From positions 10,602,001-10,666,000 of the forward strand of contig JAGIQG010000034.1 of assembly GCA_024679065.1 (NCBI GenBank): DNA of 64,000 nucleotides, read 5' to 3'. The notes beneath the pieces were generated by a model, which did not search any database, was not told the DNA's origin, and saw only the letters and a list, made by a program, of their open reading frames with translations. This document shows, piece after piece, positions 7,375-64,000 of this stretch. The position numbers and the translations under genes are program-made. This DNA comes from Sphyrna mokarran. Its lineage: Eukaryota. The first letter of the stretch is position 1, and every line of letters starts with the position of its first letter.

Positions 7375-7791
7375 TTAATTACCCTGAGTCGACATCACAT
7401 CTGTCGACTGTGGATCACAGAATGCCCCATATCGGCCATAAATGTCCTTTGCTCGGACTGCAAAGTAGTACTTGCTTCCGGACACAAACTGAGTGAGGGT
7501 GCAGGCCATGGGAAGCGGCAATGCCTTCACTTCGCCAATCTTCTTCCACTGGGAAGGGGTTGTGGTAGCAGGATCTTCATGGTAGGCGTAGAGGTGATAG
7601 CTGTCCACAAGCGCACAAGAGCGGTCTACTTCCAGGACACTCCAGGACAGGACTATTCCATTCTGACTCTGGACGCGGGCGAGCTTGAGGTGAGGCTTCT
7701 GAGGTGGAGAAGTATTAGCAGCCTCTGGAGGTAACCGCTGTGGTGGCTGGGCCTCAGGGAGTGGTGCCGGGTGGATGGGTCGAGGTGGCTC
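7375..7791 (-). CDS. ATF7IP: ATF7IP terminal coding exon (C-terminal fibronectin type III domain)
   Basis: [14 protein letters not shown]...[30 protein letters not shown]...[39 protein letters not shown] is near-identical to the vertebrate ATF7IP C-terminus. Acceptor tcaatacag|GAG, phase 0; stop TAA. Confidence 0.97.
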
Positions 7792-32684: not shown

Positions 32685-33929
32685 TCATTTTAGTCGTTCC
32701 TGCTTTATGACATAGTTCTGCAAGATGATCCCAGTATTTTTTCTGGAGACAGTATTGGGATTTAAAGTCACTGTAGAAGAAGTTGTTCCTGCTTGTGGGT
32801 CACGTGCTACAGAACTTGGAGCTGTGTAAATATAGTTGAACCCTACATTGTCTAACATGTCTGACCAAGCCCGGTACTGAAATTCTGCAGCTCCCCAGTA
32901 GTTTCTAATACTGGATTCTGAACGGTGGCCAGTAAGTGCCATGATCTCCCGTGCTCCAAGGCCAGCGTCACAGAGGAGACGAACAGTTGTAGTTCTGAGG
33001 GAATGGTTGGTGTACCTCTGGGAGAGTCTGGCAGCAATACTGATTCTAGGCATCATGCTTCCAAGATAGTTTACTCCCATTGGCTCCCTTTTATACCACA
33101 CAGATTGTTCTCGTAACTGCTCTGGTGTTAATTTTAGAGGGTGAAGGTAGAATGCAGGAGGGTCTGGTGGCAGTTTTGATATATAAAGTTCAAGCGAAGT
33201 GACTGGGCAGTTTACATCTCCTGGCATATCGTACATCCGGCCCAATTTCAATGGGTCCTCCTGGCTTTTACTTTTCCCAGTATACTTCAGCATTGCATAG
33301 CGTCGTCCATTGGGATCTCGCTTAATGACAAAAGCATCTGGAGGAAGGTCCCGAAGGATTTCCCGCCCACGCTTTGCAAAATGTAACTGCAGATCAAACC
33401 AGACTTTGTTCACAAGTGCAAGGGGTGTGTGAAGTCCCAGGACACCAGATGTCCTGATCTTTCGAAGATCGGCTGCATTAATAGGGGGATGATGATTTGT
33501 TTCATCCTTTCCTTGCTTTCTGAGTATCTTCAGCACTCCTAGGAACACATTATTGGCACTACTGAATTCCTTGTCTTGCATTAGGCAGATCTGTCGGCTG
33601 TGAGGAGGCATTTTAAGGTGCCTGTTTAAGCCTGCCCGGATAGATTTGTAACTGGAAATGCTATAGGTGTTACCATCGTGATTCCTTACAGTTCCATAAA
33701 ATTCTCTCAAAATACTGTTGAGTTCTTCCACTGACATAGTTTCAAATTTTTCATCTTTGCCCTTTTCAATAAGCCACTGTTTAAGAATATTTACAGCCCA
33801 GTCTGTCTGCTTACGGGTATTCTTCTCATTGCGTTCTTCCTCAAGTCCAATGAGATCTTCTTCAGTCACACTAACATGCCGCCTGGCTCCATCTAAAAGT
33901 TCGTTGCTGGCAATTTGTTCTTCTGTCAT
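32685..33929 (-). CDS. YR1: Crypton-type (DUF3504, KCTD1-N-like) tyrosine recombinase-fold protein nested in an ATF7IP intron
   Basis: Uninterrupted 414-aa ORF. N-terminal NTRKQTDWAVNIL...LREFYGTVRNHDGNTYSISSYKSIRAGLNRHL; catalytic boxes FAKRGRE (R187), TNHSLRTT (H309/R312), TGHRSESSIRNY (H335/Y344). Frame stays open upstream to about 34055. Confidence 0.92.
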   Translation of the reverse strand: MTEEQIASNELLDGARRHVSVTEEDLIGLEEERNEKNTRKQTDWAVNILKQWLIEKGKDEKFETMSVEELNSILREFYGTVRNHDGNTYSISSYKSIRAGLNRHLKMPPHSRQICLMQDKEFSSANNVFLGVLKILRKQGKDETNHHPPINAADLRKIRTSGVLGLHTPLALVNKVWFDLQLHFAKRGREILRDLPPDAFVIKRDPNGRRYAMLKYTGKSKSQEDPLKLGRMYDMPGDVNCPVTSLELYISKLPPDPPAFYLHPLKLTPEQLREQSVWYKREPMGVNYLGSMMPRISIAARLSQRYTNHSLRTTTVRLLCDAGLGAREIMALTGHRSESSIRNYWGAAEFQYRAWSDMLDNVGFNYIYTAPSSVARDPQAGTTSSTVTLNPNTVSRKNTGIILQNYVIKQERLK

Positions 33930-35298
33930 TTGGTCCTCAAAACTGAGCAGTGTGTTGCCATCGAAAATGCCATAGGTGTAGAGTGGGGGGTGAGACGCTG
34001 TTTTTTCGGACAGCTGTGAATTGCGGAGTAATACGTAATGTTTTGATATAATTCTTTAAATTAAAAAAGCTACACAAAATAATTCAGCAGGTGGCACTCG
34101 TTAAGGTTTCTTAGCAGAGGTGTGCCAACATTCAATAGCGCACACCCTATCAACCCATCTCTTTTACACATTACAAACCATGGCATTACATGTTGTCATA
34201 CAATGAACAGCAGAAGGGCTTGAGTTTGCTTTCAGTTCGACTAAAATGATGCTAAATCTCTTTTGTAACTGCTGGACCTTTTAGCTATTGAGATATTTGA
34301 TGAAGGAAAAGAAAATCAAATGGGGGGGAAAACACACTGATTTTATATATGTATTCTCTAGAAGAACTGGAAAAGTTTCAGTACCGCAACAAGAAAATCT
34401 GCATCAGAAATTTGAAATGGCTTACGAGTTCTACAAATGAACCTTGACTGACTGAACAGCTTCCACTTCTGCACTGTGACACGCTGAGCAACGAGTTACC
34501 CGAATTTAAGGCTGTTACAAATGTGTGGCACGGCTGTATCCCAATCAGAATGCGTCACTCAGTTGAAGGTTTCTGAAAACTTTTGACAGCATCTTGGAGG
34601 ATTGAATCCAGCTGTGCTGACGAGTGCTGTTTTGTTTAGAGAATCTTTCCAGTTTATGTAGAGAATGCACAACATAATTACCTTTTCCCTCTTGCCACCC
34701 AAATGATTTTTTTTTGTTTTAAACACGAGCACTCACCAGGATGCTTTCCACCACTCTCTTCTTTCTGGTGAGGCTAAAGACGTGAATGTACAACATAGTA
34801 CAGATATGACAACCACCTCCCCCGCTCCATCCCATTACACCTCTCTGGGTATTTGTGGAAGGGCTTGTCACATTTATTGTCTCAATATACTTATTCTGAC
34901 CACTAAGAAATCAAAAAAATTCCCCAAAACATAAAAATCAAATGTTGTGGCTTTAATTCTGCCAAGGTTGTCTGTAGATTTTGCAGAAAGGTGGATTTGA
35001 AAACAAAAGAGTTGGTTATATTTAAGTAGAAAAAATGTTAACTTACAGAACAACAATATTACCCCTTAGAACTTTACTGGGCAAACGTAACAAGCTGATC
35101 CATGGTGGATTACTGAGAAAGGAACAATGTGACAATTGGGTTCGTTTGTACAGATTCTTCTGTACAAACAGCAACCACATTTTACCCAAAGGGATAACTA
35201 TATTATATCAACTGGCTTGGCCAGGAAAGACAATGAGAGAGACTGCTGCCGAACATAACCGGTGGTCTGATCTGCATTGATAAATGTACTATACCCAC

Positions 35299-46049: not shown

Positions 46050-46162
46050 CTGCGACACTGCACGCTACCAGAAGCGCTAGAAGGGTTATAGGTTTTGCTG
46101 GGAGAGACAGGTTGCGTAGATTGGAGCCCAGATGGTTGCTGAGGTGTGGAGGTGACTGGATT
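46050..46162 (-). CDS. ATF7IP: ATF7IP internal exon (most 5' canonical exon found in window)
   Basis: ttcatttaatccag|AAT...CGCAG|gtaaga, 113 nt, phase 0 to 2. NPVTSTPQQPSGLQSTQPVSPSKTYN...QCR, where PVSPSKT resembles mammalian PVSPGKT. Not in the ORF track. Confidence 0.85.
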
Positions 46163-46499
46163 CTGGATTAAATGAAAAAATTATGTAAGGATGGTTGCGT
46201 CAAAAGGAAAAGTACTTCTGAATTTTTTCAGCATCACAATACCCCATAAAAAGTGAAACCTAGCAGCTTCTGGCTCATGAGGTTAGTTCATTTTCTAAAA
46301 AAATGTATTCTATTTGGCTTGAAACACAGTCCATATAAATGGTGCACACAGCTATCGCTCAGCTGACCACGTGTTGCTCAAATTGCACATGAGCAATCTG
46401 AGTACAACTAAGCTTCAATGACAGCTGATTTTATATTTGCAGTCCTGATCTTCTTTACTTCAGTCACCTTTCATCTGTCAGGTTTCCAAATTTGATAGA

Positions 46500-48930
46500 A
46501 ACACAGAAAATAGGAGGAGGCCATTCAGCCGACCCTCCAACTTAACATCACAAGTGTGGAAATTTATTTCCTTTTTAAATATATTCAGTGACTTGGCCTC
46601 CAGTCTCTTCAGTGATTGCTTCCACAGAGTTTTGTGCTGGAGAGTTCCATAGGTTGACCAGCCTGAGTGAAGAAGTTTCTCCTCATCTCAGTTCTAAATG
46701 GCCTACCCTGTATCCTGTGACAGTAAACCCATTGTTCTAGATTAATCCACCCACACATGCCAGAGGATACATCACCCTTACATTCAGTCTGCCAGCCCTA
46801 TCAGAATTTTGAGTTACAATAAGATCCTCTCTCATTCTTCAAAGTGAATACAGGCCTAGTTGACTCATGACACTCCTGCTATCCCAATGTGGTAAACCTT
46901 CACTGCAAATTTTCTTGCAATGAAGACCGACATACTATTTCCCTTCTTAACTACTTGCCGCATCTGCTTCCAGTGACTGGTGAATTAGGGCACCCAGGTC
47001 CTTTTTGTATATCAACATTTTCCAGTCTATTACCAACTTTTCCCATTGAAAAGGAGATAACTTAACACTTATCCACCTTATTCCGCATTTTTGTCCACTT
47101 ACTCAACTTGTCTAAACTTCCTCGAAGACTCATAACATCCTCATCACCCATTCCTACCAATTTTGTGCTGTCAGCAAATTTAGAAATATTACATTTGGGC
47201 CCCTTATCCAAACTGAGAGTGTTACCATTGAATAGCTGGGGCCCAAGCACTGATCTCTACTATAGCCCACTAGTCACTACCTGCCACTTTGAAAAAACAT
47301 TTATTCCTGTTTCCCTACTACTGATGTTAGGCTAGCTGCTGCATAATTCTTTACTTTTTCCTTCCCTCCTTTTTTTCAAAATAGTGGAGATATGCTTACC
47401 ACTCTCCAGTCTGCTGGAACTGTTCTAGAACTCTATGGCCACCTTTATACCCTTGAATGTAAACGATTAGGCCCTGGGGATTTATCAGCTTTCAGTCTCA
47501 TTAATTCCTCGAACACTATTTCCTTCATTTCCTCCATCTCACTAGAAACTTGGTTCCGTAGAAATGGCACAGAAGGTTGCCCCTCCTGTTTATGCAGATC
47601 CAAAGACATCCAGGTACCCTTTTTAATGCCTTCTTCCCACACACAATCCTGCAGTTTACAGCACTTTAGGTGCAGATCCAGGTAAGAGTTTAGGGTCTCT
47701 GCCTCCACCACCAACTCAAGTGGCAAATTCCACAGCCTCTGATTAAAAATATTTCCCCTCATGTCTCCTCTAATCCTATGACCTGTGGTTTAACTTGAAT
47801 CAAAGACTCCTGGTTTTTGAGCTCTCTAAAAGAAAATAGGTTCCTTCTGTCTATTTCAACTCCATCCCTCACAATTTTGTATACCTCAATCATGTCACTC
47901 CTCAGCCTTCTCTGCTCCAAGGAAAACAACCCCAACCCCTCTAATCTCTCTTTATAGCCACAATTCTTCAGCCCTTGCAACATTTGAGTAAATCTTCTTT
48001 GCACGCTTCTCAGAGCAATTACATCCTTCCTCTAATGTGGTGACCAGAACTGCGCACACAATAGTCCAGTTGTGGCTTGTGTCTTACAGTTCCATCATTA
48101 CATTTCTGCTTTAATATTCTATACTCTGCCAATGGAGAGAATTCCATATGCCTTCTTTACAACCTTATCTATTCTGTACTGCTCCCTTTAGAGATCTGTG
48201 CACCTACACACCAAGATCTCTCACTTTAATTGACCGCCTTAGTATATCCCCATTTATTGTGTATTCGCTTTTACTGTTTGACCTCCCTAAATGCATGACC
48301 TCACACTTCAAGTTAAACTTTGTCTGCCATTTTCCTGCTCTCTCCACCAATCCATCTATCATTGTGGAGCTTATTCTTCTATACTATCCACTACATAGCC
48401 AGCTTTTGTGTGGTTTGCAAATTTCATAATCGTTCTCTCCCTACACCCCCCCAATGTTCAAGTCTAAATTGTTAGCATACAAAAGAAACAGAAGAAATCC
48501 CAAAGTCTAATAGAACACCATTTGAAACAGCTTTCCATTCACACGGGCAACTATCAACTATTACCCTTTTCTCTTGTTACTAATCCTGTTACTAAGCCAA
48601 CTTTGAATCCAATTTGCCCATCACCTGTATTCCATGGACTTTTATTTTTTTGACCAGTCTGCCACATACGGCCTTGTTAAATACCTTACTGAAATCCATG
48701 TAGACAACATCCATTGCACTATCCTTACTGATCCTCTTTGTCACTTCCTCAAAGAATTCAATCAAATTTGCAAAACATGACCTTCCCTTCAAGCCATGCT
48801 GACTATCCCTAATTAGTCCATTTCTTTTTAAGTGACAGTTTATCTCACCTCTTGGGATTGATTTTAACAATTTGTCCACCACCGAAGCAAGCCTAACAGG
48901 CCTATAAGTGTTTGGCATTTTCCTAGCAAT
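46500..48930 (-). mobile_element. Two adjacent or nested degenerate CR1 LINE fragments
   Basis: ISKFADSTKL, DKSPGP, QRRFTQMLQGL, YRPVRLASVV and DVVYMDFSK in broken ORFs. Confidence 0.85.
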
Positions 48931-50235
48931 GTTTTCTTTCTACATATTTGTTGTTAATTGACACCAAAGGCTACACTTAAAGAAAGGTTTTCCTTGCTTG
49001 TATCACATATGCAAGAATACAAATCTCAGGGGAAAGTGGTAATTGTCATAATTGCCATACTTAATGCATTCAGTTGCAAAATACTACTGTCACGATAAAG
49101 ACACTTGCCAATGCCAATTGCAATATCTGATGAAATAAAATAAGGAACAAGGAGCGAGTATGAGGGAAGCAGGTATGAGGGGGAAAAAAAAACAGTAGGA
49201 TTGCTATAAATAGACATACATGCAAACCAACAGTTCTATGTAATGTCTCAAAAAAAAACTTGCCAAGTGGCAAATTAATTGTTTTACACAGCGTTTATCC
49301 AAATTCAACTGAAAATGAGGCGAGTTTTGTTAACACGAAAACAAAAGCGCAACACAAAAGTGATGAAGTGAGTGAAAAACGTGCAGACTCTGCACAGTGA
49401 CCCAAGCCAGGAATCGAACCCAGATCCTGGTACCGAAAGGCAGCAGTACAAACCACTGTACCATCCATAAACAAATTGTTTGATGAGCAGTTAATGTATA
49501 GGATCAAAACTTCAAACAAATTGTCACTGAATTAATTTCTACCCAATCTTTATCAGATATGGTGTAAATAAAATGTTGAGAGATGGTTATATAATTTTCC
49601 CTGGCTTCACTTAGATTAATCTCATGTAACAGGGGTGAATAAATAACTGCTAAATATGTGTAATATCTAAGAGACACATCAATAAATATGTCTACACAGT
49701 GCATTAAAGGACAAACATAGGGTACCAGATCATTCAAACAAATGTCTATTGGTATAAATTTACGTCAAAGCCAAGTCCTTCAGTAACATAGTTGCTTTCT
49801 CATCTTCTACTTCACATTTGTATTTGACATAAAACAGCAATTTTTTTTTTACAAAACCATATCGATTTTGCACATGTATTGTTCTTCAGCATTATTATGC
49901 TGACTGTATTTCATGGCCTTCTACACAAAATGCTATAAGTATGATCAACTTCCAGTATTTTGACCAGAAACTTAACTGGATCATCCACACAAATACACGG
50001 ATTATAAAAGCAGCGTCAGAGGCAGGGTGCAACTCACTTCCTGACTCATGCCTTCTACAAGGTGGACAAGTTAGTAGTGTGGTGCAGTATTGCCCAGTTG
50101 CCTGGATGAGTGCATCTCCAATAATGTTCAAGTTCAACATCATCTTAAACAAAGTTGCCTGTTTTCCTTCTTGTAACCTTCTTAAACATTCATGCCCTTC
50201 ACCAATGGTTTACATCAGTGAGATGAGAGTGATTG

Positions 50236-52341
50236 GACTAGGGAACTACAGGGACTGGGAACATCTGGAATGTGGTGCTTATTCAAGGAGCAGCTGCTGC
50301 GAGTCCTTGAGAAGTATGTCCCTGTCAGGCAGGGAGGAAATGGACGAGTAAGAGAGCCTTGGTGTACGAAAAAAGTTGATTTGCTGGTTAAGAAGAAAAA
50401 GGAGGCTTATGTCAGGATGAGGCTTGAAGGCTCAGATAGGGCAATGGATAGCTATAGATTAGCCAGGAAGGAGGTAAAAAGTGAATTGAGGAGAGCTAAG
50501 ATGGGACACGAGAAGATGTTGGCTGATAGGATTAAGGAGAATCCTAAAGCTTTCTTTCGATATGTTAAGAATAGAAGATTGGTTAGGGCAAGATTAGGGC
50601 CAGTCATAGACAGGAGTGGGAAGTTGTGCGTGGAGCCTGAAGAGATTGGAGAGGCACTGAATAAATATTTCTCTTCGGTATTCACGCAGGGTGATGTAAA
50701 TGTAGTTATGGAGAGCACTGAGGTACAGGGTAGCAAACTGGAAAGTATTGAAGTAGATAGGGAGGATGTGCTAGATATTCTCGAGGTTTGAAGTTGGATA
50801 AGTCCCCTGGGCCGGACGGGATTTACCCTAGGATTCTCTGGGAGGCAAGAGAGGAGATTGCAGAGCCTCTGGCTCTGATCTTCAGGTCCTCGTTGGTTAG
50901 GGGTGTGGTTCCGGAGGACTGGAGGATAGCGAATGTGGTCCCATTGTTTAAGAAGGGGAAGAGAGACCTTCCAGGGAATTATAGGCCAGTGAGTCTTACT
51001 TCTGTTGTGGGCAAGGTATTGGAGAGAATTATTAAGGATAGGATTTATAGTTATTTAGAGAGAAATGAATTGATTGGGGATAGTCAGCATGGTTTCGTGA
51101 AGGGTAGGTCATGCCTTACTAACCTCATTGAGTTTTTGAGAAAGTGACCAGAGAGGTGGATGGGGGTAAGGCGGTTGATGTAGTATATATGGACTTTAGT
51201 AAGGCTTTTGATAAGGGGGCCCATGGAAGACTTCTACAGAAAATGCAGATGTGTGGAATAGAGGGTGATTTAGCTAATTGGATTAGAAAGTGGCTGGCAG
51301 ATAGAAGACAGAGGGTGGTGGTTGATGGGAGATATTCATCGTGGAGTTCGGTGACGAGTGGTGTGCCTCAGGGGTCTGTTTTGGGGCCCCTGCTGTTTGT
51401 AATTTATATAAATGATCTGGATGAGGGTATTGAAGGATGGATTAGTAAATTTGCAGATGACACTAAAGTCGGTGGAGTGGTAGATAGTGAAGAGGGGTGT
51501 TATAGTTTACAGAGTGACTTGGACAAGTTGCAGAGCTGGGCCGAGAGGTGGCAAATGGAGTTAATGTGGAAAAGTGTGAGGTAATGCACTTTGGCAGGAA
51601 CAATAAATGTGTAGAGTATAGGGCTAATGGTAGGGCTCTTAATAGTGTTGAGGAACAGAAGGATCTTGGTGTATGTGTAATAGATCCCTGAAAGTAGGCA
51701 GTCAAGTGGATAAAGTTGTTAAGAAGGCTTATGGAGTCTTAGCTTTTATTGGTAGGGGGATTGAATGTAGGAGCCGCAGCATAATGTTGCAGCTGTACAA
51801 AACTCTAGTGCGGCCGCACTTGGAGTATTGTGTGCAGTTCTGGTCGCCACATTATAAGAAAGATGTGGAGGCATTGGAGAGGGTACAGAGGAGGTTTACC
51901 AGGATGTTGCCTGGTATGGAGGGCAGGTCTTATGAGGAGAGGCTGAGGGATTTGAGGTTGTTTTCGTTAGAAAGGAAGAGGCTAAGAGGGGACCTGATCG
52001 AAACATATAAGATGATTAGAGGTTTAGATAGGGTGGACAGTGATAGCCTTTTTCCTAGGATGGAGAAGCTAGCACGAGGGGACACAGCTTTAAATTAAGG
52101 GGTATGAGTTATAGGACGGATATCAGAGGTAGGTTCTTTACTCAAAGAGTGATTAGGGAGTGGAATGCCCTGCCTGCAGCTGTTGTAGATGCGCCAAGTT
52201 TGGTGGCGTTAAGAGGTTAGTTGATAAGTATATGGATGAGAAGGGAATGGTTTAGTTAGGAGGGGCATTGCTTTTTATTTTGGTCGGCACAACATCGAAG
52301 GCCGAAGGGCCTGTTCTGTGCTGTATTGTTCTATGTTCTAT
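50236..52341 (+). mobile_element. Young 5'-truncated CR1 LINE with reverse transcriptase (frameshifted ORF2)
   Basis: [37 protein letters not shown] and FADD motifs over four ORFs; gttctat tail. Confidence 0.95.
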
Positions 52342-53480
52342 GACTGCCCTTGACATCAAGGCAGAATTTGACCAACTGCAGCATAAAGGATTCCTAGCAT
52401 AACTGGAGTCAATGGGATATCAGGGGGAAAAATTCTCCAATGGTTGCAGTCATACCTAGCAGAAAGGAAGATGACTATACTTGTTAATCATTTGAATCCC
52501 AGGATGTTACCGCAGGAGTTTCTCAGGACATGTCTAACTATCTTAGCTGCTTGATCAATGACCTTTCCTGGATCAACAGGTCAGAAGTGGGGATGTTTGC
52601 TGATGATTGCGCAGTGTTCAGCACCATGTGCAACTCCTCACATATCAAAGCAAAATGCAACAAGGCCTGGACAACATTCACATTAGGCTATTTCACACCA
52701 CATAAAAGTGTCCAGCAATGACCATCTCTAATAAGGGAGAACACAATCATTTTCCTTTGATATTCAACAGTCTTACGATTGCCAAACCCCTCACCAACAT
52801 CCTGGGTGGTTACCATTTATCAGAAATGAACTGATAGCCATATAAATGTTAAGCAATTCCACAATGCTTAACTCACATCTAGACTCTACAGAATCTGTCC
52901 ACCATCTACAAGACACAAATAGGGAATGTGATGCGATGTTTCCCAGTTGCAGCTACAATGCCCAAGATTTGACACCACCCAGAATAAAGCAGCCCACTTC
53001 AATGGCACCTCACCCACAATCTTCAACATTCAGTCTCTCCACCACTGACAGGCAATAGCAGCATGTTCAACGTAGAAAAATGCATCGCAGTAACTCACTC
53101 ACCAAGCCTCCTTAGCACTTTCCAAACACACGACCTCTACCATCTAGAAGGTCAAGGGCAGTGGATGCACGAGAGCACCATCCCTCTATGTCAAGCTCCC
53201 CTCAAAAATCATGCAGCATGACTTGCATTATTGCTGGGTCAAAATCATGAACACCTGTCCCAACAACCACTGTACCATCCATGAACAAATTGTTTGATGA
53301 GCAGTTAATGTATAGGATCAAAACTGCAAACAAATTGTCACTGAATTAATTTCTACCCAATCTTTATCAGATATGGTGTAAATAAAATGTTGAGAGATGG
53401 TTATATAATTTTCCCTGCGGCTGGTCCTACGCCATATGGACCACAGCAGTACACAGCAGCAGTTCACTGCCAAATTCACA
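52342..53480 (+). mobile_element. Old LINE (CR1/L2 group) RT remnant that hosts the young CR1
   Basis: GMFADDC motif. gagagtgattg (about 50225) continues as gactgcccttgacatcaaggcag. A related copy lies at about 54680-55860. Confidence 0.65.
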
Positions 53481-54679
53481 AGGAACATGCACCCCATCTA
53501 TTAATTTAAAAAAAAACTTTGAAAAAATTAGCTGTTTCAACTGCATTTGTCATAAGAAATAGTTCATTCTGAAGCAACTAAATTAAGAATAAATTTGGGG
53601 AATGAATAAATGAAAGGAAGAGAAAATCACTTCTAGTTATCTCATAAACCATTCAAAATGCAAGTCACCTGGATCAGTCATTTCTGACTTGAAAACCTAT
53701 TTCATGCATCAGTGGCAATTACCAACTCACCACTTGATGGCACTCTTGAGTTTTCAAAAAAAAAAGTGATAGACATTGTTATGCAAGGTGGTTAATTGTC
53801 CAGGGATAATTACAAATGCTAAGGTTAAATTTACTTTAGTTTAATAATCTTGGAACTGGTACCATTTAATGAGCGGCACAACTAATACTTTTTTTTGCTA
53901 ACTTAAACAGCTTGAATTTCCAGCTGTTTCTGCTGCTCAGCATTGGTGAAAGCCTTTACTTGGGAATATGAATTCAATTCTGGACACCAGTCTTCCTTCT
54001 TTCCAATGCACAATTTTGAGTTGGCATGGAAACAAACATGGAGCACAGTTTATCAAGTGGGAAATTGTCCTCCAAATTGTACCAGCACACAGGGAAATCA
54101 AATATCACTGTATAGTACCATTTAATGCAATGCTCTTAAATTTTCAGCAGTGTTAAGTAACAAGCAGTATTCTGATGATTTATGGCATAATCTTATTTGG
54201 TGTTAGAAGTTGCAGTGTTCCAGATACTGCACACAGAAGTTATTCAATCGCAGAACATAAATAGGAACAGCATTGTAAACAGTGTTTCCTGCACATTCTA
54301 AAGCAGCTTACGCTTTCTTGCCACATAATAAGTATCAATTTTTGTAACAATTTTCCCATCCTGCCCACCAAGGGAATCCTCGTGGGTGGGAGACAGGGAC
54401 ACCATGCAAAAGATCCATTGACAATGGGTGGGATTTTCTGGTTTTGGGACAAATGTGGCCAGAAAGTTCTGCTCTTAATAGCCACTGATTTAGCATATGC
54501 TTTCCTTAATACAGATTAAAGTCAAAACCAAATGCAGCTCCAAGCAAAAATGAACTTTATGCAGTTTTTTTGCAGAAACATTACAAATGACAATGCGATG
54601 TAATCTGTGATCCCATAATAAGTCTCTCCATAAAGAGCACAACCCAAAGAGCCAGACCTCTAGTCAAGTTTGGTGTCTA

Positions 54680-55860
54680 CTAAACAACATGGAAAATTGC
54701 CCAGTAATGTCCTCATCACAAAAAGGACAAATCCAATCCAATTACCACCTCAGCAGCCTCCGATCAGTGATGCAAGATGTTGCTGATGTTCCTATCAAGC
54801 GGCACCTACTCAACACTAACCAGTTCACCAATGCTCAATTTGGTTCCGCAAATACACAAAGGAACTGAACTCAAGAGGTGAAGTGAGAGTGTCTGTCCTT
54901 CACACCAAAGGAGACAGAGTGTAATGTCAAGGAGTATTAGTAAAACTGAAGTCAATGGGAAAAAACTTTCCACAACTTGACTTTGGAATCAAACCTAATA
55001 AAGGGAAACGGTTGTGGTTGTTGGAGGCAATCATCTTAGCCCTATGATATTGCCACAGGAGCCCCTCAGGGTAACGTTCAAGACCCAGTCATCTGAAGCA
55101 GTTTCACAATAATGAGAGGTGGGGACATTCATCAACGATTGCACAATGTTCAGCACCATTCAGAACTTTTCAAATGTTGAAGCAGTCCATGTCCGTATGT
55201 AGCAAGATCTCGATAACATTCAGGTTTGGACAGATAAGTATCAGGCAATGGCCATTTCTCCAACAGAGAGAATCTAACAATTCCCCCTTTAAAATTTAAT
55301 GGTATTACTCTTGTTAATCCCCCACGATCAATATTCTGTAGTTTACCATCATTACTGTGGCTACAAGAGGTCAGAATGTGAGTATTCTGCAATAGGTAAC
55401 TCTCTCCCCATCTACAAAGCACAAGTCAGGACTGTGATGGAATCCTCTAGCTGAGTGCAACTGCAACAACCCTCGAAGTCTGACACTATCCAGCACTCCA
55501 TAATCAGCACATCAAAATATTCACTCCCTTTGCTAATGCACACCTGGCTGAATTTACTATACAGCAGCAACTTGCCAAGGTAACTTCCTTACTGGAGTAC
55601 TTTACCACCTAAAGACAGCCAGCACAATGGAACACCACCGCTTATTGCGAGTTCCCTTCAGATCACACATCGTATTGACTTGAAAATATTCTACCATTGC
55701 CTAAATCGCAACTGGATCAAAATCACAGAATTCTCTACCTAAAAGCATTATGATTGCACCTATACCATATGGACTATAATGGTTCATGAAGACTACCCCT
55801 TGCCATCACCACCTTAAAAAGCAATTGGTGATGTGGAACAAATGCTGGCCAGCAAGGCGC
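54680..55860 (+). mobile_element. Old LINE remnant, same family as 52342-53480
   Basis: Shared degenerate blocks (gtcaatggga, gattgcacaatgttcagcaccat, atctacaa.gcacaa). Confidence 0.55.
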
Positions 55861-56418
55861 ATAACTCGGACACTGACCGAAAAAAAGCATTTGATTTTTT
55901 TAGTTAATATTTGCACTTAATTCCATCAAGTAGGTGACTAACCTTTTCTCATAACCCCCCAATGCGATAAGAGAAATGATGAAAATTAAGAGATAGTAAT
56001 TTTGCTCAGCAAATCAGAATAAAATCCAATGGGCCATATGTATAGGCTTAAATAATTTTTAATAATGAGACAACATGGTAACAATTTTGTTACTAAAGTT
56101 TAGTTGCTTATTGCACGTGAAATCTCCAAAAGCTAAAAGGTTAAGTATTACTGACAACCATACACAATAAATCCATTTATAGCATAAACAGAAAGTGCTT
56201 TGAAAGAACCAGCTCATAAATTTAAACATCTTATATGATGGGAAGTAATACTAACACTTTTGCCCCTCGTCAATTTGTTTCACAACCTTACAATCTCGTA
56301 AGTCATTTTTACACTACTGTTAAGATTTTAGCAGCATAATAGGTTGATGTTGACGTTACTGCAACTTTGACAGTAGACATTGGTAATGTTGAAGGTGTAC
56401 TATGAGGCAGTTCAACCT

Positions 56419-56685
56419 TCAATTCTTCTTGGTTTGTAACTTCAGCTTCCGTCTGGAGGCTATAGTCACTGCTTTGTGCACACAAACACTCTGCTGTCTC
56501 AAGGAAGAAGATGATCGTGAACAAGTGGCATTCTTCTTCAAAGGATTTGGAGGCTGCAAACAGTCAGATACTGCTTTCATTTCAGTCTTTTTGTAGGACA
56601 TCATTGCATTACTGCCATTTCCCATTCGCTCCTTAATTAGCTCTTCATCAAAGCCACGATTGTGAAGAGCAGCTACACTGCTGAC
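56419..56685 (-). CDS. YR2 exon B: C-terminal recombinase box II region and stop
   Basis: Acceptor tgtttgttgtag|GTC, phase 0. VSSVAALHNRGFDEELIKERMGNGSNAMMSYKK supplies the YR C-terminus (L..G..E..I.ERxGH.S...Y pattern) missing from exon A. 88 aa then stop. Confidence 0.85.
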   Translation of the reverse strand, partial: VSSVAALHNRGFDEELIKERMGNGSNAMMSYKKTEMKAVSDCLQPPNPLKKNATCSRSSSSLRQQSVCVHKAVTIASRRKLKLQTKKN

Positions 56686-58789
56686 CTACAACAAACATAC
56701 AGAAAAAGTAAAAAAAAAAATAAGCCTGTGCAGATGAAAAATCACTGGGGTTGTGCAGACAGGCTGGATTTTGGATGTTGGTAGATTTTTTTGTTTGATG
56801 ACTATTGAGGCGTTGCTTGCTGTGTCAAAACGGCTTTTCTCCTTACAGTTTTGGCATTTGGAATTGGGGTGAATTCAATTAATATTTACAAGATACATAG
56901 TATCACTACTTGTTTGTAAGAATAACTAATGCCTCACTGTCTGCTGCATCATAAGCTGAAAAACCACCAAGGAAATCCAAACCTTTAATACAACCTCCAA
57001 TACAAAGGGTTTATAAAATGCAACAGCAAAAGGGTTTCCAAATATTTGCAATTAAACTAGAAAGGTAACACAAATGCAACAGTGTAAAATGGTAATAATA
57101 GAATTCTACAGATATAACAAGATTTCACTCAGGGAAGATGCATTCAACACATTCTAAAATCACTGAACACCCATTCGGATCACTTTTGCAATGGCGATCA
57201 TTTCAATTTGGTGGGGATTAGGTTGTCATCTGGCACCCATAAACACTTGTAAATAATTAATTTGACAAAAAACCTAAAAGTGTATGAAAACTGCATAAAA
57301 ATTATGAGTGGGATTGAACCAACTAAACCAGACAGTAAACAGAATTTAGGTGAAGGACCAGACGGCCACGATGAAGGCTTTATTCTGGGTAACACTAGGG
57401 CATATTTATTTTTCCATTCTGAATTTTGTAACAGCAAGATCCAAAAAATCTGCCATGACATCACATCACTGATTTTGGAGTTGGCCAATTCAAATGCCGT
57501 AATAACAGCATTGCATCTTAGTTAATTACATCATATTGTACCTTCATGTGCATTGAGCAACAGTGAATCTGGACATATAAATTGAGTCAATTTTCAATAG
57601 CAAGGCAATCTGCGAACTGCACATCCATCCGGCAAGTTCAATTGTTCAACCGAAGACAGCTCCGATGGACTTCTACAGCACAAGTCAATTTTTTTCTTGG
57701 CCATTCTAATTTGACCAGTTTTTGTTTTATTAAACACAAATTATTTTGTAAATTGACAATCACATCAGCATTTCCATAAAACCTAAGTGAAAGCCATATT
57801 ATGCATTCAAAAATCACAATTTTGAAAAAAAATAGGAAATCTGCAGAATTTACTAATACTTAAATCTCTCCAGTAGTCCTGGATACTCAAAATCTAACAA
57901 CAAAAAGGAGGAGTCCCTCTCCTGACCAACAACACTCCCCCCATCCCAAACCGCTCCCCATCAAACAAAGGAAAAACACTTGTTGAAGTGATCTATCTTC
58001 CCAACTCAAATTGTAAGAGTGAATTCTGGGCAACAACATGCTTTACTTTGTTCAATAAAATATTGATATAAAAACATTGAGAAATGTCAGCAATTTCTGT
58101 TATTGTGTTTTGGATTAAAGGAAAATAAATTATTTTTCCAACAAATATACAATAAGCCTCCTCTATACTATTGGATAAAAAAAGTACAATAATTAATGTG
58201 TTACCCAATATACTGATGCCAACAAAAACTCTGTCCCTGTGGGATCATGGGTATGCTAAAATGGTTTTGCTTTCATAAACATAATTTCAGTTTATGAAAT
58301 TATGATCTCAGCCACTTGGACAAATCCTGCTATTTACCGATGTTATGGCAGCTTAGCAATTAGATCAGCAAAGTTGATCAACACTGATTAGCTGGCTTGC
58401 TGGTGCCAATAAATAAAAAGTCAGCTAGTTATAACGATGGCTGCTCAGAAAATAGCTTAGTCATGTGCAATGTTTGACGTCAGAATTAATTCACTGCCAA
58501 GGCAGTTTCATCATTGTGTTGGGGAAGCAAAGGGTGCACAAATACAGAGATGGTGGTTTTCAACATTACTGACAGGAGTAATCAATATAAAAAGGATTGG
58601 GTTCTGTCACATGAAGGCTTATTTTATATATAATACACACACACACATATATACACACAGTTATAATGGGCAATTTATCAGAAGACAGATTAGCACTACA
58701 GCACACCTTGCGTTTTTTAAATTCAACAGCAACAACCTAGGCATCAGATCAACTTTATTGAAATCTCAATACTACGATCAAAATTTTCT

Positions 58790-60085
58790 GCAGGACATAG
58801 GTAGATTGGACAGATATGGCAGATGGAATTTAATCTTGATAAATGCGAGGTGATGCATTTTGGGAGAAAGAATGTAGGGGGAAGTTATATGATAAAGGTA
58901 GACCTATTAAGAGTACAGAAAAACAGAGGGACCTGGGGGTGCAGATGCACAAGTCTTTGAAGGTGGCAGAAAAGATGGAGAAAGTTGTGAAAAAAGCTTA
59001 TGGTATGCTAGTCTTTATAGGAAGGGGTGTAGAATACAACAGCTGGCGTCTAATGTTGCAGTTGTGTAGAACGTTGGTTAGACCTCATTTGGAATACTGC
59101 GTCCAGTTCTGGTCACCTTACTACCGGAAGGACATGGAGACCCTGTAGAGAGTGCAGAGGAGGTTTACCAGGATGCTGCCTGGTATGGAAGGTCTGGGTC
59201 GCGAGGAAAAGTTAGGCAAATTGGGGCTGTTTTCTTTAGAAAGACAGAGACTGAGAGAAGATCTATTAGAAGTTTACAAGATTCTGAAGGGTATAGATAA
59301 ACAGTGGTAAGCTTTTTCCTAGGTTGGAATCAAATATCACGAGGGGTCACGGGCTTAGGATGAGAGGGGCAAGGTGTCATTTGGGTGTTAGAGGGAGGTT
59401 TTTCACATGGAGGGTTGTAGGGGTTTGGAACGCACTGCCAAGTAAGGTGGAGGAGGCAGGCACGCTGGAAATACTTAAGAGATTTAAGAGGTACTTAGAG
59501 AGGCACATGAGCAGAATAGGGATGGAGGGATATAGAAGACTGATTTAAATAGAGATCATGAGCCTTGGGGCGTTTCTGGGAATTGCATAAGTTGTGCATA
59601 TTATTGATGTATTTCTCTTTTATCCTACAGGTACTTCAGTCCACTCTGTTGTCCAACAAGGGGCATACACACGATGGGTCATGAGAGGAATGCTTTTGGA
59701 TTTTGAGAGTAGCCTGGTGCTTCACATTGTTAGCGTACGCTTAAACTGGACCAGTTGATGGGCAACACGACAGCTCAGTGACCATCACTGTTGCTGTGCA
59801 GGTACAGGGATTTGGGCCGGTATCTGTGGGAGTTTGCGCATTCTCCCCGTGCTTGTGTGGGTTGTCTCCGGGTGCTCCAGTTTCCTCCCACACTCCAAAG
59901 ATGTGCTTTAAGGCTGATTGGCAGAACAAATTGTTCCTAAATTGTCTCCCCAATTTGGTTCCAATGCAGATTTCCATAAACATGGACAAGGGTCATGGGT
60001 GAAAGTTGGAAAGTTAAAATGGCAGCACAGGCTTGTTGGGCCGAAGGGCTTGTTTCCTGTACTGTGTTGTTCTTTGTTCTTTTGC
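58790..60085 (+). mobile_element. CR1 3' end with a SINE-containing extended 3' region (copy 2)
   Basis: LVRPHLEYCVQFWSPYYRKD...WNALP, then the same unique segment, SINE core and tail as 19178-20435. Confidence 0.88.
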
Positions 60086-60589
60086 ACTTCAGAATATAAC
60101 TTCATTATTTTAATATAGTTAAACAAGGGCAGGGGGTATACTTGTAATTTACATGTTGATCTGTTCCAAGGTTCTGCGATATTAACATCAATCAGCCACT
60201 AGTACCAATACTTGAAGTTTACAATTTTTTTAAGGTCAAATGACAAAGTTTTTTCAATTTCTGAGTAGAATGTTAATTATTATGAATAACATACAAATAC
60301 AAATTCAAAAACTTAATGGCATGTTTTTAATTTTATCCTGCATAGATAAGCAATTTAAGTCTGGGGATATTAAACTGAAAATTGAGGTAATAACCAGGAA
60401 GGATGTTGACATATAAACTGCACAGTCAGATTGGGATGAAAATTTAGTTAACTGCTTTCACCGAAAAAAAGCATCCTCAGGCTCACTGCAATGCCAGAGA
60501 CTGGCAACACTGTTGGAATAAGATTCTCAAACGTTCCATTTATAATTTGGATAAATTGAGGCAGAAACATAAAAGCAGATTACCTGAAT

Positions 60590-60940
60590 GGCTGTAAGTT
60601 GGGAGAGGGGAGTGTGCAATGAGATCTGGGTGCCATTGTGCACCAGTCACTGAAGGTAAGCATGCTAGTGCAATAGGTGATAAAGGCAGCAAATGGTATG
60701 TTAGCCTTCATTGCAAGAGGTTGAGAGTACAGGAGAGGGATGTGTTGCTGCAAATTATACAGGGCCTTGGTAAGGCAACACCTGGAGTATTGTGTGCAGT
60801 ATTGGTTTCCTTCTCCAAGGAAGAAAGTTCTTACTCTCTAGGAAACGTAGCGAAGCTTTATTAGACTGACTGCAGGGATGGCGGGACTGATATATAGAGA
60901 GAGATTGACTAGGTTGGGATTGTTTTTGCTGGAGTTCAGG
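60590..60940 (+). mobile_element. Degenerate CR1 3' fragment ending at a poly-G run
   Basis: cacctggagtattgtgtgcagtattggt (HLEYCVQ.W). Confidence 0.7.
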
Positions 60941-62465
60941 GGGGAAGGGGGGGGGGGGGGGGGGGTTTGTCATATCAAATAATTATAGCAAAGATGATAA
61001 ATTAATGGACCAAAACTCATCTCTAACAACCAAGCCAGTCTTTCCTGTTGCATTTGTGGACAGCCCTTTCTGCTGCCCCAACCTGCAACCCCCCCAACCC
61101 CAGCACTTTATCCTAGAATTTATCACCCTTTATGAACTAGTTTTCAATATCAATTTTAAAATTAACCGGGCCCATTTAAGCTCATTCCTCTGGTCTGATA
61201 CAAAATAATTAAAACAAAGTTTAATATTTTTACATAGCGAGGTTCCATCAAACCTCTGGAGATTTTTACGAGAATAATTCAAAATCCAAATTTTAACTGA
61301 CTGAAAATATAGTGCAAGAAATGTAATCTAAATAGAACCCACTTTTAACCCTAATTCAATATATTTTGTTACTAGGAAGTGGCAGCTATACATAGCACGT
61401 GTACATAATGTTTATTGCAACGATCTTAGGTAATCAATGTCAATTGTGAATTAATCTAGCTGCCCTGTCAGTGCTCTCACCAATAAAATTTCAGTAATTG
61501 GAAACAAGCTACAGCAGTAACAGACGCAAATCGATGGACGGATTACAACATCTGTGTAAATCACTGCCTACTGAAAAGTAAACATCTGAAAAAGCTCTGT
61601 GGGTTGAAATATGATAGTGTTTCTATTCTGACTGGTTATATTTGGTCTTAGGATTACAACACTGGAAGTCAGTTGATTTAAGTGGCATCATAGACTTAAA
61701 TAAGCTCATATTTCCACTGAAACAACAGTAAAATCTCAAGCTGGCGGAAATAATCTCAGAAATCTGGCTACCAGACTGCATTGAGAAAATATTTATCTTC
61801 TCATACTGGGTGCAGGTAGGTGTAATCATGACCAACCATGCCTGCTATTGCAGCAAATTTACTTCTGGGAGGACAAAAGCTCCACCATCAATTTCAAAAG
61901 GATCGTAACCATATGAAGCTGTCTCTTAATGGATCCCAATTTAAAACTCAGTTAACATATGGAATCAGATCCTTTTGGTGGCAAGCTAACAAATGCATAT
62001 AGTAGAATTTTTGTTTATTAGTTACAATTCAAGCTCCAGGTCTGCCTGCCATTAATCATGTGGCAAGTGGATGATGTTCTGGAATTACTGGATCAATGTA
62101 CAGAAATTAGCAGAAACCTACAGGAAAGAGGAGTGTGAGGGAATGGGGTCTCTTAAGCAAGTAGCAAAAGCAAGCCGCAGAACCAGTGTTGGTGGTTAAA
62201 ATGGGCAAAACATAAAGCAGAGCAATTAAACTTAAACTATATGCAATTTAAGTTTCCTTCCAGTTCACAATTGTCTAAAAAAATTAGGCTTTGTCACTTG
62301 ACCTTACGCATTCTGTACTTTAAAGCAATATGACTAATAAAAAACAATCCTATGATGGGTGAACTTTTACAGACTGGCTAGATTGTATTAAAATGCATAT
62401 AATAGTACGAGGCAATAAAATCCCTGCTTTTGCAACATTGATAACAAAATACTTTTTATGCTTAC

Positions 62466-64000
62466 CCTTCCAGATTGGCCAGTATGTCGCCCCGAAATGC
62501 CACCCGCCTCACAGATTTCTTTGGAGTAATGCTCCAGAGTGTGAACTCCAATAGCTTGCAGGCAGAACTCCAGCCGCCCAGGAAGAGGGCGCCGGTAAAA
62601 TGGACCATCTCTTGGAACCATGCTGAGGTAGCGACGAAAGAGAGAAACAATGCATCTTGGGTTGGATAAGTCTGCGTACTGCCGGATATGTCCTTTTGTT
62701 CTTTGGATTCCATCTCTGTAAGGCTTTGCCACAAATTCCAAATATTCTCCAATTTCATCAGCTCCAAAGCTGAACTGATCAACCATCAATTTATTGTGTT
62801 CTGCTGCTGCATGTACACCAAAGACTTTACAGAGGTAGAAATAGACAGCATAACTGTAACTTCTTGCATCTTGAAGTTGAAAAACTATTTGCCACAGTTT
62901 TTCTTCTTCTTTCTCAGAGTAAGGCTGTGCTTGTTTCCTTACTATACCAATCCCCTGTTGTTTAAGTTTTCTCATTTGCCTGTTGAGGATAGACCGAAAT
63001 GCAGCATATTCTGTGTTATATTCATTAAAGAAATCAATGTCCAGTCGCTGGCAGGTTTCACGCAAGTATCGCAAAATGGAGCAGCACAGGAGTCGGAGAG
63101 AATTAGGCGGATAAAATGATCCATCACGCCGACGCACTTCCTCCACAAACTGGCACAACCAGAAATTCAGTTGGTTGTGAGTTATTTCATGAGACAGTTC
63201 CGGCACATAAAGGGATGGCTTGCATAATTCCACGCTATTTTCCATAAAGTAATTATTTCGATTCCTAGCCCACTCATCCCAAGCTCGAATGCCCCAGGCG
63301 GTGGCTCTCCTTGTATTGTATGGCATTGTGTTATCTGGAATAATTATCTGCTTTTTGTCTGGTGCAGGTTCATAATTGCCTTTGGGAGTTCTATCATCCT
63401 GCAGCTTCATAGAAGGTTCAGCACACGTATTAAAGAGAACTCTACTCGCTAGCAATACTGTACGTTGATTTCCTGAAATTCTTTTGTTGTATCTAATCTT
63501 ATTCTTTTGTAATATTACATGTGGCTTACTTAAATCAGGCTCATCAAGGACACAGGGAATCCTCTTCTCAAGTAGTACTGTGTGTTGTTGGTCTGTGTAA
63601 GATTTTCCTAAGATACTACAAGGACCATTATGCTCTAGTGAAAGTAGCGACCTTTGCTGGACAAGAATATTATCAACCTGTGGTTTCTCTGTAGTTAAGT
63701 GGACAAAAGTACTCTTGGAAGTTCTACTAATTTTTAACGCAGTCTCATGCTCCTTCATTATAATGTCTCTGAATGAGTTATAATGACCTTGATTATTTAT
63801 TAAAACAGCCTGCTGTTTATCTGTAATGAGTTTCTGTTTAATACTTAAAGGTATATTATGCTGTAATAGAGCCTGTTGTTCTAATGTAACAGCTTTGCCC
63901 AATTCAGCAGAAATCCTACAATCTGGCAGTGGAACTTTCTGCTTTATTAAAGGCTCACCAGATCTATTATCTTGTAATGCAATTTGTCGATTGTATAATG
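62466..64000 (-). CDS. YR2 exon A: Crypton/DUF3504-type recombinase-fold protein, 5' end beyond the window
   Basis: Frame open from the window edge (LYNRQIALQDN...). Contains NTRRATAWGIRAWDEW, LNFWLCQFVEEVRRRDGSFYPPNSL, EEEKLW, FGVHAAAEH and HTGQSGR. Ends at consensus donor AGG|gtaagc, phase 0. Confidence 0.88.

Follow-up and report, generated by a model that had tools for sequence, protein, structure and literature searches.

What is a recombinase-like reading frame that loses its similarity to recombinases in the middle of the active site? The 64,000-nucleotide (nt) stretch of Sphyrna mokarran DNA considered here (hereafter the window; contig JAGIQG010000034.1, G000:C927:10602001-10666000 in genome coordinates) carries on its minus strand such a frame, YR2, which is related to the tyrosine recombinases (YRs) of Crypton transposons and breaks off at HTGQSGR, directly before gtaagc. 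It could be a truncated relic, or a gene whose remainder lies beyond an intron. The data presented below indicate that YR2 is almost certainly spliced, from 62466 to 56685. As to its nature, the account that we favour on balance, with modest confidence, is that of a two-exon gene with a predicted Cre-like fold located in ATF7IP, in which three of the five catalytic positions are changed, which likely derives from a CryptonA transposon, is likely spliced and likely provides, in a part of the transcripts, an alternative ATF7IP end that would tether SETDB1 to chromatin.

Structure of the YR2 gene

The first coding exon, exon A, begins at a phase-0 acceptor at position 64166 (positions beyond 64,000 continue the numbering of the window), i.e. 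166 nt past the window edge, and occupies 62466..64000 within it. Its full length of 1701 nt (567 codons) encodes, in this order, a low-confidence linker of about 280 amino acids (aa), a core-binding domain (Pfam QRICH1) and a catalytic-type domain (DUF3504) up to HTGQSGR. The upstream open reading frame (ORF) had been given as 504 aa in a preliminary description made from the letters alone; it is 536 aa long and 5′-open in the window, and 648 aa from stop to stop in the genome. Both Pfam domains are detected in it (QRICH1, E 1.4e-15; DUF3504, E 3.8e-7). HTGQSGR ends, with its R codon, at 62466, directly before the 5′ splice site GTAAGC (62460..62465, minus strand; donor AGG|GTAAGC) of a 5780-nt phase-0 intron (56686..62465, minus strand), which interrupts box II directly after the H-x-x-R position. 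This intron ends with a long T-rich polypyrimidine tract and the 3′ splice site TGTAG (56686..56730, minus strand; acceptor TGTAG|GTC at 56685, also in phase 0). The sequence signals of a U2-type spliceosomal intron are present: GT donor, pyrimidine tract, AG acceptor and a preserved frame.

The coding part of exon B (56419..56685, minus strand) is read in frame 0 from 56685 over 88 codons until a stop at 56419. Its translation opens with VSSVAALHNRGFDEELIKERMGNGSNAMMSYKK and completes the H-x-x-R helix, after which come the helices surrounding the H/W and Tyr positions and a variable tail. It is followed by a likely 3′ untranslated region (56039..56418, minus strand) with an ATTAAA that starts at 56063. 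The tail (56310-56460, minus strand) is frameshifted, the longer tail of Heptranchias, Pristiophorus and Carcharodon being still readable in another frame; an assembly error was considered as its cause and rejected, since the short tail is common to the Mustelus, both Scyliorhinus and the Cetorhinus models. Between species, the length of the linker ahead of the YR core ranges from about 200 to more than 450 aa, its frame staying open, and an insertion found in the reads amounts to 3 nt (window 62466-64000, orthologues P0009-P0012).

The break of YR similarity at HTGQSGR|gtaagc and its repair by the phase-0 acceptor at 56685, both proposed in the preliminary description, are borne out by splice signals and phase and by a profile comparison. 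A hidden Markov model (HMM) of Crypton recombinases, built from the non-shark relatives whose sequence extends across the splice site (57 of 144), gives 347.7 bits to the joined YR2 versus 300.5 bits to the unspliced frame and 295.1 bits to exon A alone. The proposed join ranks first among 138 (itself included) that lead to an in-phase AG followed by an open frame of at least 40 aa between 46200 and 62400; the runner-up (310.5 bits) is an AG within the same exon and the median is 297. The HMM check suggested earlier thus succeeds by 47 bits with the Crypton profile and fails with Pfam DUF3504, which gains nothing from joining (30.7 bits unspliced; 28.0 bits for the spliced orthologue P0007), apparently because the Pfam profile stops about at the splice point. 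Positions 3-161 of its 162 fall within exon A of a paralogue described below, and a Pfam scan of exon B alone returns no family.

In all nine public orthologue models (Mustelus, two Scyliorhinus, Heterodontus, Pristiophorus, Heptranchias, Rhinoraja, Cetorhinus and Carcharodon), the exon B peptide follows exon A. Identity to YR2 is 77-95% across sharks and a skate and culminates in Mustelus (95%; 94% for exon B). Exon B, which had been regarded as hidden from annotation, is therefore already annotated in RefSeq, mostly as part of an uncharacterised protein, and the splice is in itself ordinary, as it is already found in automated gene models.

The transcript evidence comes from contigs of sequencing runs. 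Twenty-two runs were listed, none of them recorded as RNA, a gap in the records that speaks neither for nor against transcription, and contigs of four (X1, X2, X3 and X5; four studies, four organisms), whose RNA nature was guessed from the data and not from the records, were aligned on positions 62001-70200. Rare forms tend to be lost from such contigs, and the listing leaves out a further 43 loose ends and 81 pieces, so that the joints mentioned hereafter are those among the listed ones. Exon A is covered in the four runs, whose contigs show spliced joints, which indicates that YR2 is expressed. In each of them, exon A contigs cease aligning at 62459, 7 nt into the intron, which is the last base shared by the start of the intron (GTAAGCA) and that of exon B (GTCAGCA), and leave 85, 566, 640 and 611 unaligned letters. 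The longest leftover (640 letters, run X3) would, if collinear, extend to 56039 and so finish 24 nt beyond the first base of ATTAAA. The junction check in reads proposed earlier thus gives breaks that fit the splice closely in four of four runs; the joint between exons A and B is inferred from these breaks.

YR2 as a candidate alternative end of ATF7IP

YR2 is nested in ATF7IP, after the exons encoding the SETDB1-binding coiled coil and before the exon encoding the FN3 domain, a placement that the preliminary description lacks. According to public proteins, the order on the minus strand is as follows: an ATF7IP_BD exon (72252-72401), ATF7IP exons down to 69895-69815, YR2 (64166-62466, then exon B from 56685), ATF7IP exons at 46162, 43350, 42196 and 35391, YR1 (34013-32685), more exons, and FN3. 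The canonical splice from the exon 69895-69815 skips YR2 and leads to the next canonical exon (46052..46162, minus strand). The last exon (7378..7791, minus strand) encodes FN3 (7405-7707), which an isoform ending in YR2 would lack.

A fusion of the host gene with YR2 would use the donor CAAGAG|GTAGGT at 69815 and the acceptor TCTCAG|ATT at 64166, both in phase 0. This join is found in RefSeq models from Mustelus (XP_078093639.1), Scyliorhinus canicula (XP_038639810.1), Heterodontus (XP_067875599-605) and Heptranchias (XP_067830693-695), and a model from Rhinoraja (XP_078286867.1) is fused through an in-frame acceptor of its own, after which 108 residues pass without a Met. In-frame ATF7IP-YR2 fusion models, all in phase 0, are thus available for five of the nine species, for which they imply the same genomic position of YR2. 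To form a 2:1 complex with SETDB1, human ATF7IP needs no more than its coiled coil 574-666 (PMC12167477). If human C631 corresponds to shark C469, an inferred match of a Cys that is also conserved in duck, this coiled coil would map to about residues 412-504 of P0007 and would end some four residues before the fusion junction at 508. In mouse embryonic stem cells, loss of FN3 does not prevent ATF7IP from binding SETDB1, and ZMYM2 is among the partners bound by FN3 (Tsusaka 2020, PMC7706265).

Combined with the gene structure, these data allow the following model to be proposed. The two exons would be joined exactly from 62466 to 56685. Some transcripts would encode ATF7IP(1-508)::linker::YR2, in which the SETDB1-binding coiled coil would be kept and the FN3 partner hub would be swapped for a dead recombinase clamp. 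This clamp might grip DNA without cutting it or bind a partner, for instance SEPHS1, to which the related DUF3504 domain of QRICH1 binds (bioRxiv 10.64898/2026.10.26.761783). A second transcript class would start inside the intron of ATF7IP and yield YR2 alone. As for the intron of YR2, it would have arrived with the transposon and survived a DNA-level duplication that occurred before the chimaera-shark split. The steps of this model are not equally secure: there is a good chance that some ATF7IP-YR2 fusion transcript exists, and both classes, fusion and own start, probably do, while a tethering function of ATF7IP::YR2 is somewhat less likely than not.

The strongest alternative holds that YR2 is spliced and domesticated as above and merely nested, with its own intronic promoter and a non-coding first exon like its stand-alone paralogue, the fusion models being rare or functionless products. 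We regard this as the lesser possibility, albeit a serious one, as several observations made on contigs and models weigh against a fusion. A joint from ATF7IP 69815 to the YR2 acceptor 64166 is absent among the joints listed in the four contig sets; exon 69815 continues to the canonical next exon at 46162 in X1, X2 and X5, and loose ends match the start of the latter. In X1 and X3, the acceptor 64166 is joined (GT..AG) to a non-coding exon that ends at 64944 and has stops in the YR2 frame, and X2 reads unspliced through this acceptor. The models of the remaining four of nine species start differently and show no fusion. An own start would also agree with the Met found 9 codons into exon A in seven of the nine species' models read or in this genome, and with the paralogue, which has in-frame stops just before its ATG and whose 15 listed cluster members are all 504-508 aa long. 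Finally, the upstream intron stretch (64167-69814) is almost free of repeats (2% vs 27-43% nearby), and contigs from other species can be aligned to it, which would suit a regulatory region. Against mere nesting stand the phase-0 fusion models of five species, which span sharks and skates, the in-frame replacement acceptor of the skate, and the conservation of the residues that precede the first Met (I-L/P-A-P-F/S-Q-P-E), this usual first Met being L in Mustelus. The same upstream stretch contains the non-coding exon ending at 64944, which carries several upstream ATGs.

A paralogue with the same intron

A stand-alone, two-exon paralogue, missed by the preliminary description, is located at G000:C113:7263338-7267997 and is 66% identical to YR2. 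Its 3145-nt intron lies at the same codon and has the same six-base donor as that of YR2, and joining its exons raises the HMM score from 332.8 to 387.7 bits (a 55-bit gain). The two introns share no detectable similarity, alignment between the two loci being restricted to the exons. The paralogue keeps H-S-G-R and Y and has C at the first Arg position. Its cluster comprises 20 shark and ray orthologues (at least 90% conserved) together with a chimaera orthologue, all uncharacterised in RefSeq. About 19 kb away, on the opposite strand, lies an exon encoding an activin receptor domain (Pfam PF01064, E 1.7e-4; G000:C113:7243971-7244561, plus strand), which we take to be BMPR2-like; the paralogue may be nested antisense in this gene.

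Two trees were computed, a quick one with 109 of 157 rows and a careful one restricted to the exon A core of 42 chosen rows, from which the long branches P0153, P0175 and P0227 were left out; known genes other than YR1 are in neither. In the careful tree, the copies nested in ATF7IP and the paralogues form sister clades, the chimaera gene falls among the paralogues, and the coelacanth gene LOC102346282 lies outside both clades (100/100). This topology, together with the intron common to both copies, therefore points to a duplication that kept the intron and would predate the chimaera-shark split. This split dates back about 400 million years.

YR2 does not belong to a multicopy family in this genome: the search retrieved YR2 itself, the paralogue (66%) and one distant match (29%), and exon B retrieved itself and that of the paralogue, these numbers being lower bounds. 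DUF3504 as a whole gives 23 matches in the genome, which correspond to five multi-exon loci, a pair on C1215, one locus on C1326, YR1, YR2 and the paralogue. The C1215 pair consists of two single-exon matches 30 kb apart and is presumably KIAA1958-like.

Origin of the intron

The intron likely came with the transposon, a possibility that the preliminary description had missed and that is suggested by sequence comparison, because the paralogue has the same intron and because this codon is where nine Crypton predictions of invertebrate type break off. Among 146 further relatives examined, 45 end soon after homology stops, and 9 of these 45 C-terminally cut predictions end directly after H-S-x-K (P ~0.002 after correction for 25 windows, the window having been chosen after looking), with residues such as VS, VR, VC, VN or AS. 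Such endings are compatible with translation through a GT or GC donor. Five of the nine, including a limpet protein, form one clade (98/92) that adjoins the vertebrate genes (84/79 in the careful tree, 93 in the quick tree).

The intron might also have been gained after domestication, or in parallel at a site prone to gains, a scenario that bears on the origin of the intron alone and that we consider the less likely one. It would fit the exon sequence at the intron site, which is AG|GT, and the four other breaking predictions, which are scattered among uninterrupted relatives. In the same direction, an origin with the transposon is weakened by the sister link to the breaking invertebrate-type elements, supported only at 84/79, and by a metagenome scan for the breaking sub-lineage, which yielded 13 loci (identity to the query, 28-39%) and revealed the intron at none of them; 7 of these 13 have a match that passes the site and no intron there. 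Glomhoppers, fungal CryptonA elements of which intron-bearing copies are known, share no intron positions (PMC13465315, in its available portion). The clade of five and the excess of cut predictions with donor-compatible residues argue against such a later gain.

An origin of the intron by tandem duplication was rejected: although 6 of 7 bases are common to the surroundings of donor and acceptor, self-blastn shows no longer repeat at the ends, and the acceptor side simply corresponds to conserved V-S codons. A small Crypton-like group (P0189, P0248 and P0185) breaks soon after G-H-R-S, so that another sub-lineage may have an intron at a second position. Three unnamed proteins (P0124, P0125 and P0155), which are among the closest non-vertebrate matches, carry decayed Crypton YR domains in tandem, two or three per protein.

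The preliminary description had the intron full of decayed long interspersed nuclear elements (LINEs); recurring pieces, at 58800-60082 and 60558-60806, cover 27% of it versus 43% of the flank 46200-56000, coverage being measured as recurrence in the fetched DNA, without a repeat library, and hence a lower bound. Two decayed LINE 3′ pieces were located in it on the plus strand, at 58800..60082 (tblastn with the RT-bearing LINE of the window, and blastn coverage) and at 60558..60934 (tblastn/blastn coverage). The ATF7IP intron downstream of YR2 contains a decayed LINE with a reverse transcriptase (RT) piece (Pfam RVT_1, E 2.9e-18; 50222-52500, plus strand).

Fold, catalytic positions and selection

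In the structure that AlphaFold predicts for the basking shark orthologue (P0273; 92-row alignment), the predicted local distance difference test score (pLDDT) is below 50 over most of the linker and at least 90 in 291 residues, nearly all within 300-630. The splice junction falls inside helix 581-592, and exon B would provide the second half of this helix and three more. The earlier statement that exon B supplies the missing box II is right for its second half, the half with H-x-x-R being already in exon A. Foldseek ranks QRICH1 from the Zincore structure (9hjt, E 3.9e-8) and Cre/Tre (E 4e-8) at the top, the QRICH1 chain 9hjt_H being the top structural and the sole sequence match in PDB; comparison with Cre (4crx; VIA) gives a Z of 16.9 and a root-mean-square deviation of 8.2 over 283 aligned residues. 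YR2 is therefore predicted, on the basis of this model, to adopt the fold of the tyrosine recombinase superfamily, with a core-binding and a catalytic domain. A single-sequence AlphaFold model of the paralogue (P0001) has a mean pLDDT of 37 and is unusable. The layout is that of CryptonA, i.e. a DUF3504-type YR without further C-terminal domain.

The catalytic positions of YR2 are H, Q, R, N and Y in this genome, against R, H, K/R, H and Y in its relatives. None of the nine orthologue models retains the first R, the H of H-x-x-R or the residue at the H/W position, and in two lamniforms the Tyr is replaced by Cys. YR2 thus does not possess the residue set R-H-R-(H/W)-Y of active tyrosine recombinases, and exon B, contrary to what had been expected, does not complete an intact recombinase.

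Comparison of YR2 with its paralogue gives a non-synonymous divergence (dN) of 0.22 with saturated synonymous divergence (dS) for the exon A core, and dN 0.31 versus dS 2.8 for exon B. Differences in exon A relative to the contigs were examined for 38 out of 503 listed in all: the core accounts for 11 synonymous and 10 non-synonymous differences, and the linker for 5 and 12, respectively, out of 17, which looks near neutral and counts against selection on this part. Judged from these comparisons, YR2 is an intact frame under purifying selection, as expected of a domesticated DUF3504 gene. The earlier proposal of a spliced gene under long-term selection is upheld by the joined models of nine of nine orthologues, the intron of the paralogue, the exon B divergences and the contig breaks in the four runs.

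That the unspliced 648-aa ORF would be the product, or the locus a truncated Crypton fossil with an unrelated exon B, is very improbable: the unspliced ORF continues 25 codons into the intron before a stop and X3 shows some cover inside the intron, but the 47-bit gain of the best of 138 joins, the same two-piece layout of the paralogue with its 55-bit gain, the 94% identity of exon B to the Mustelus model and the contig breaks in four of four runs all oppose it. Equally far-fetched is an active recombinase or a part of a mobile Crypton, in spite of the full Cre-like fold predicted and of the second R and the Tyr kept in this species, given the three positions changed in nine of nine models, the Cys in two of them and the presence of one copy and one paralogue only (lower bounds).

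Comparison with known domesticated Cryptons

Domesticated Crypton recombinases are already known, and so is YR1, the published Crypton exon of ATF7IP (32685..34013, minus strand), which is a separate insertion described by Kojima and Jurka in 2011 (PMC3212892) and dated by Frith in 2022 (PMC9004415). In the parts of them that are accessible, both papers speak of one Crypton in ATF7IP. Table 3 of PMC3212892 includes two further chimaera accessions, unmatched here, one of which could be the paralogue of YR2. In the literature covered on Crypton, ATF7IP and DUF3504 in sharks (most subscription papers and Repbase Reports being outside its scope), no description of YR2, its paralogue or their shared intron was found. 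YR2 is apparently an undescribed domestication, present in two copies.

YR1 and YR2 share the host gene, the strand, a CryptonA-type YR proposed as an alternative ATF7IP exon and RefSeq fusion models, which are widespread for YR1. However, YR1 consists of one exon, lies four ATF7IP exons further downstream and keeps R-H-R-H-Y, whereas YR2 has two exons and changed positions. YR1 is present in birds, turtles, a frog and sharks, whereas YR2 was found only in sharks and rays, and the two are about 23% identical and far apart in the tree. R, H-S-L-R, G-H-R-S and Y are all retained in YR1. Its identity amounts to 91-95% with other sharks and rays and drops to about 70% with birds and turtles. The silencing cofactor ATF7IP, a partner of SETDB1 in the silencing of transposons, thus hosts two independent recombinase insertions.

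A broader view can be proposed, although it is speculative and probably goes too far. ATF7IP would have acquired two unrelated Crypton recombinases, each serving as a C-terminal module that can be swapped in, and in sharks and rays would end in FN3, in the intact YR1 or in the dead YR2, each aiming H3K9 methylation differently. YR2 would belong to an undescribed family of jawed vertebrates (the copy nested in ATF7IP, the paralogue nested in BMPR2 and the coelacanth gene) that would have kept the intron of its transposon ancestor and would apparently have been lost in most bony vertebrates. If the intron did come with the transposon, it would be a marker for tracing the Crypton lineage that entered early jawed vertebrates.

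Like YR2, which has the Pfam domains QRICH1 and DUF3504, the known genes KCTD1, KIAA1958, ZMYM2/3/4 and QRICH1 show catalytic decay, and KCTD1 and KIAA1958 also gained their domain as alternative exons of a host gene (PMC3212892, available text). Unlike these genes, YR2 and its paralogue form a clade of their own with the coelacanth gene (100/100, in trees from which the known genes except YR1 are absent) and keep the second Arg and mostly the Tyr, whereas all six human DUF3504 genes have lost both (same source, in part). Invertebrate CryptonA transposons (proteins from amphioxus, limpet and acorn worm, as well as unnamed proteins) are up to about 40-49% identical to YR2 over the matched parts, and some of their proteins appear to break at the splice codon of YR2. 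Uninterrupted relatives for the most part keep R, H-S-G-K, G-H-R-S and Y, whereas YR2 is single-copy and conserved. A functional parallel would be ZMYM2. Canonical ATF7IP links SETDB1 to this DUF3504 protein via FN3 (PMC7706265), whereas an isoform ending in YR2 would, by analogy, lose FN3 and bring a DUF3504-type domain within a single chain. If this isoform is real, it would be a one-chain version of the ATF7IP-ZMYM2 pairing, in which the role of DUF3504 could be tested by domain swap.

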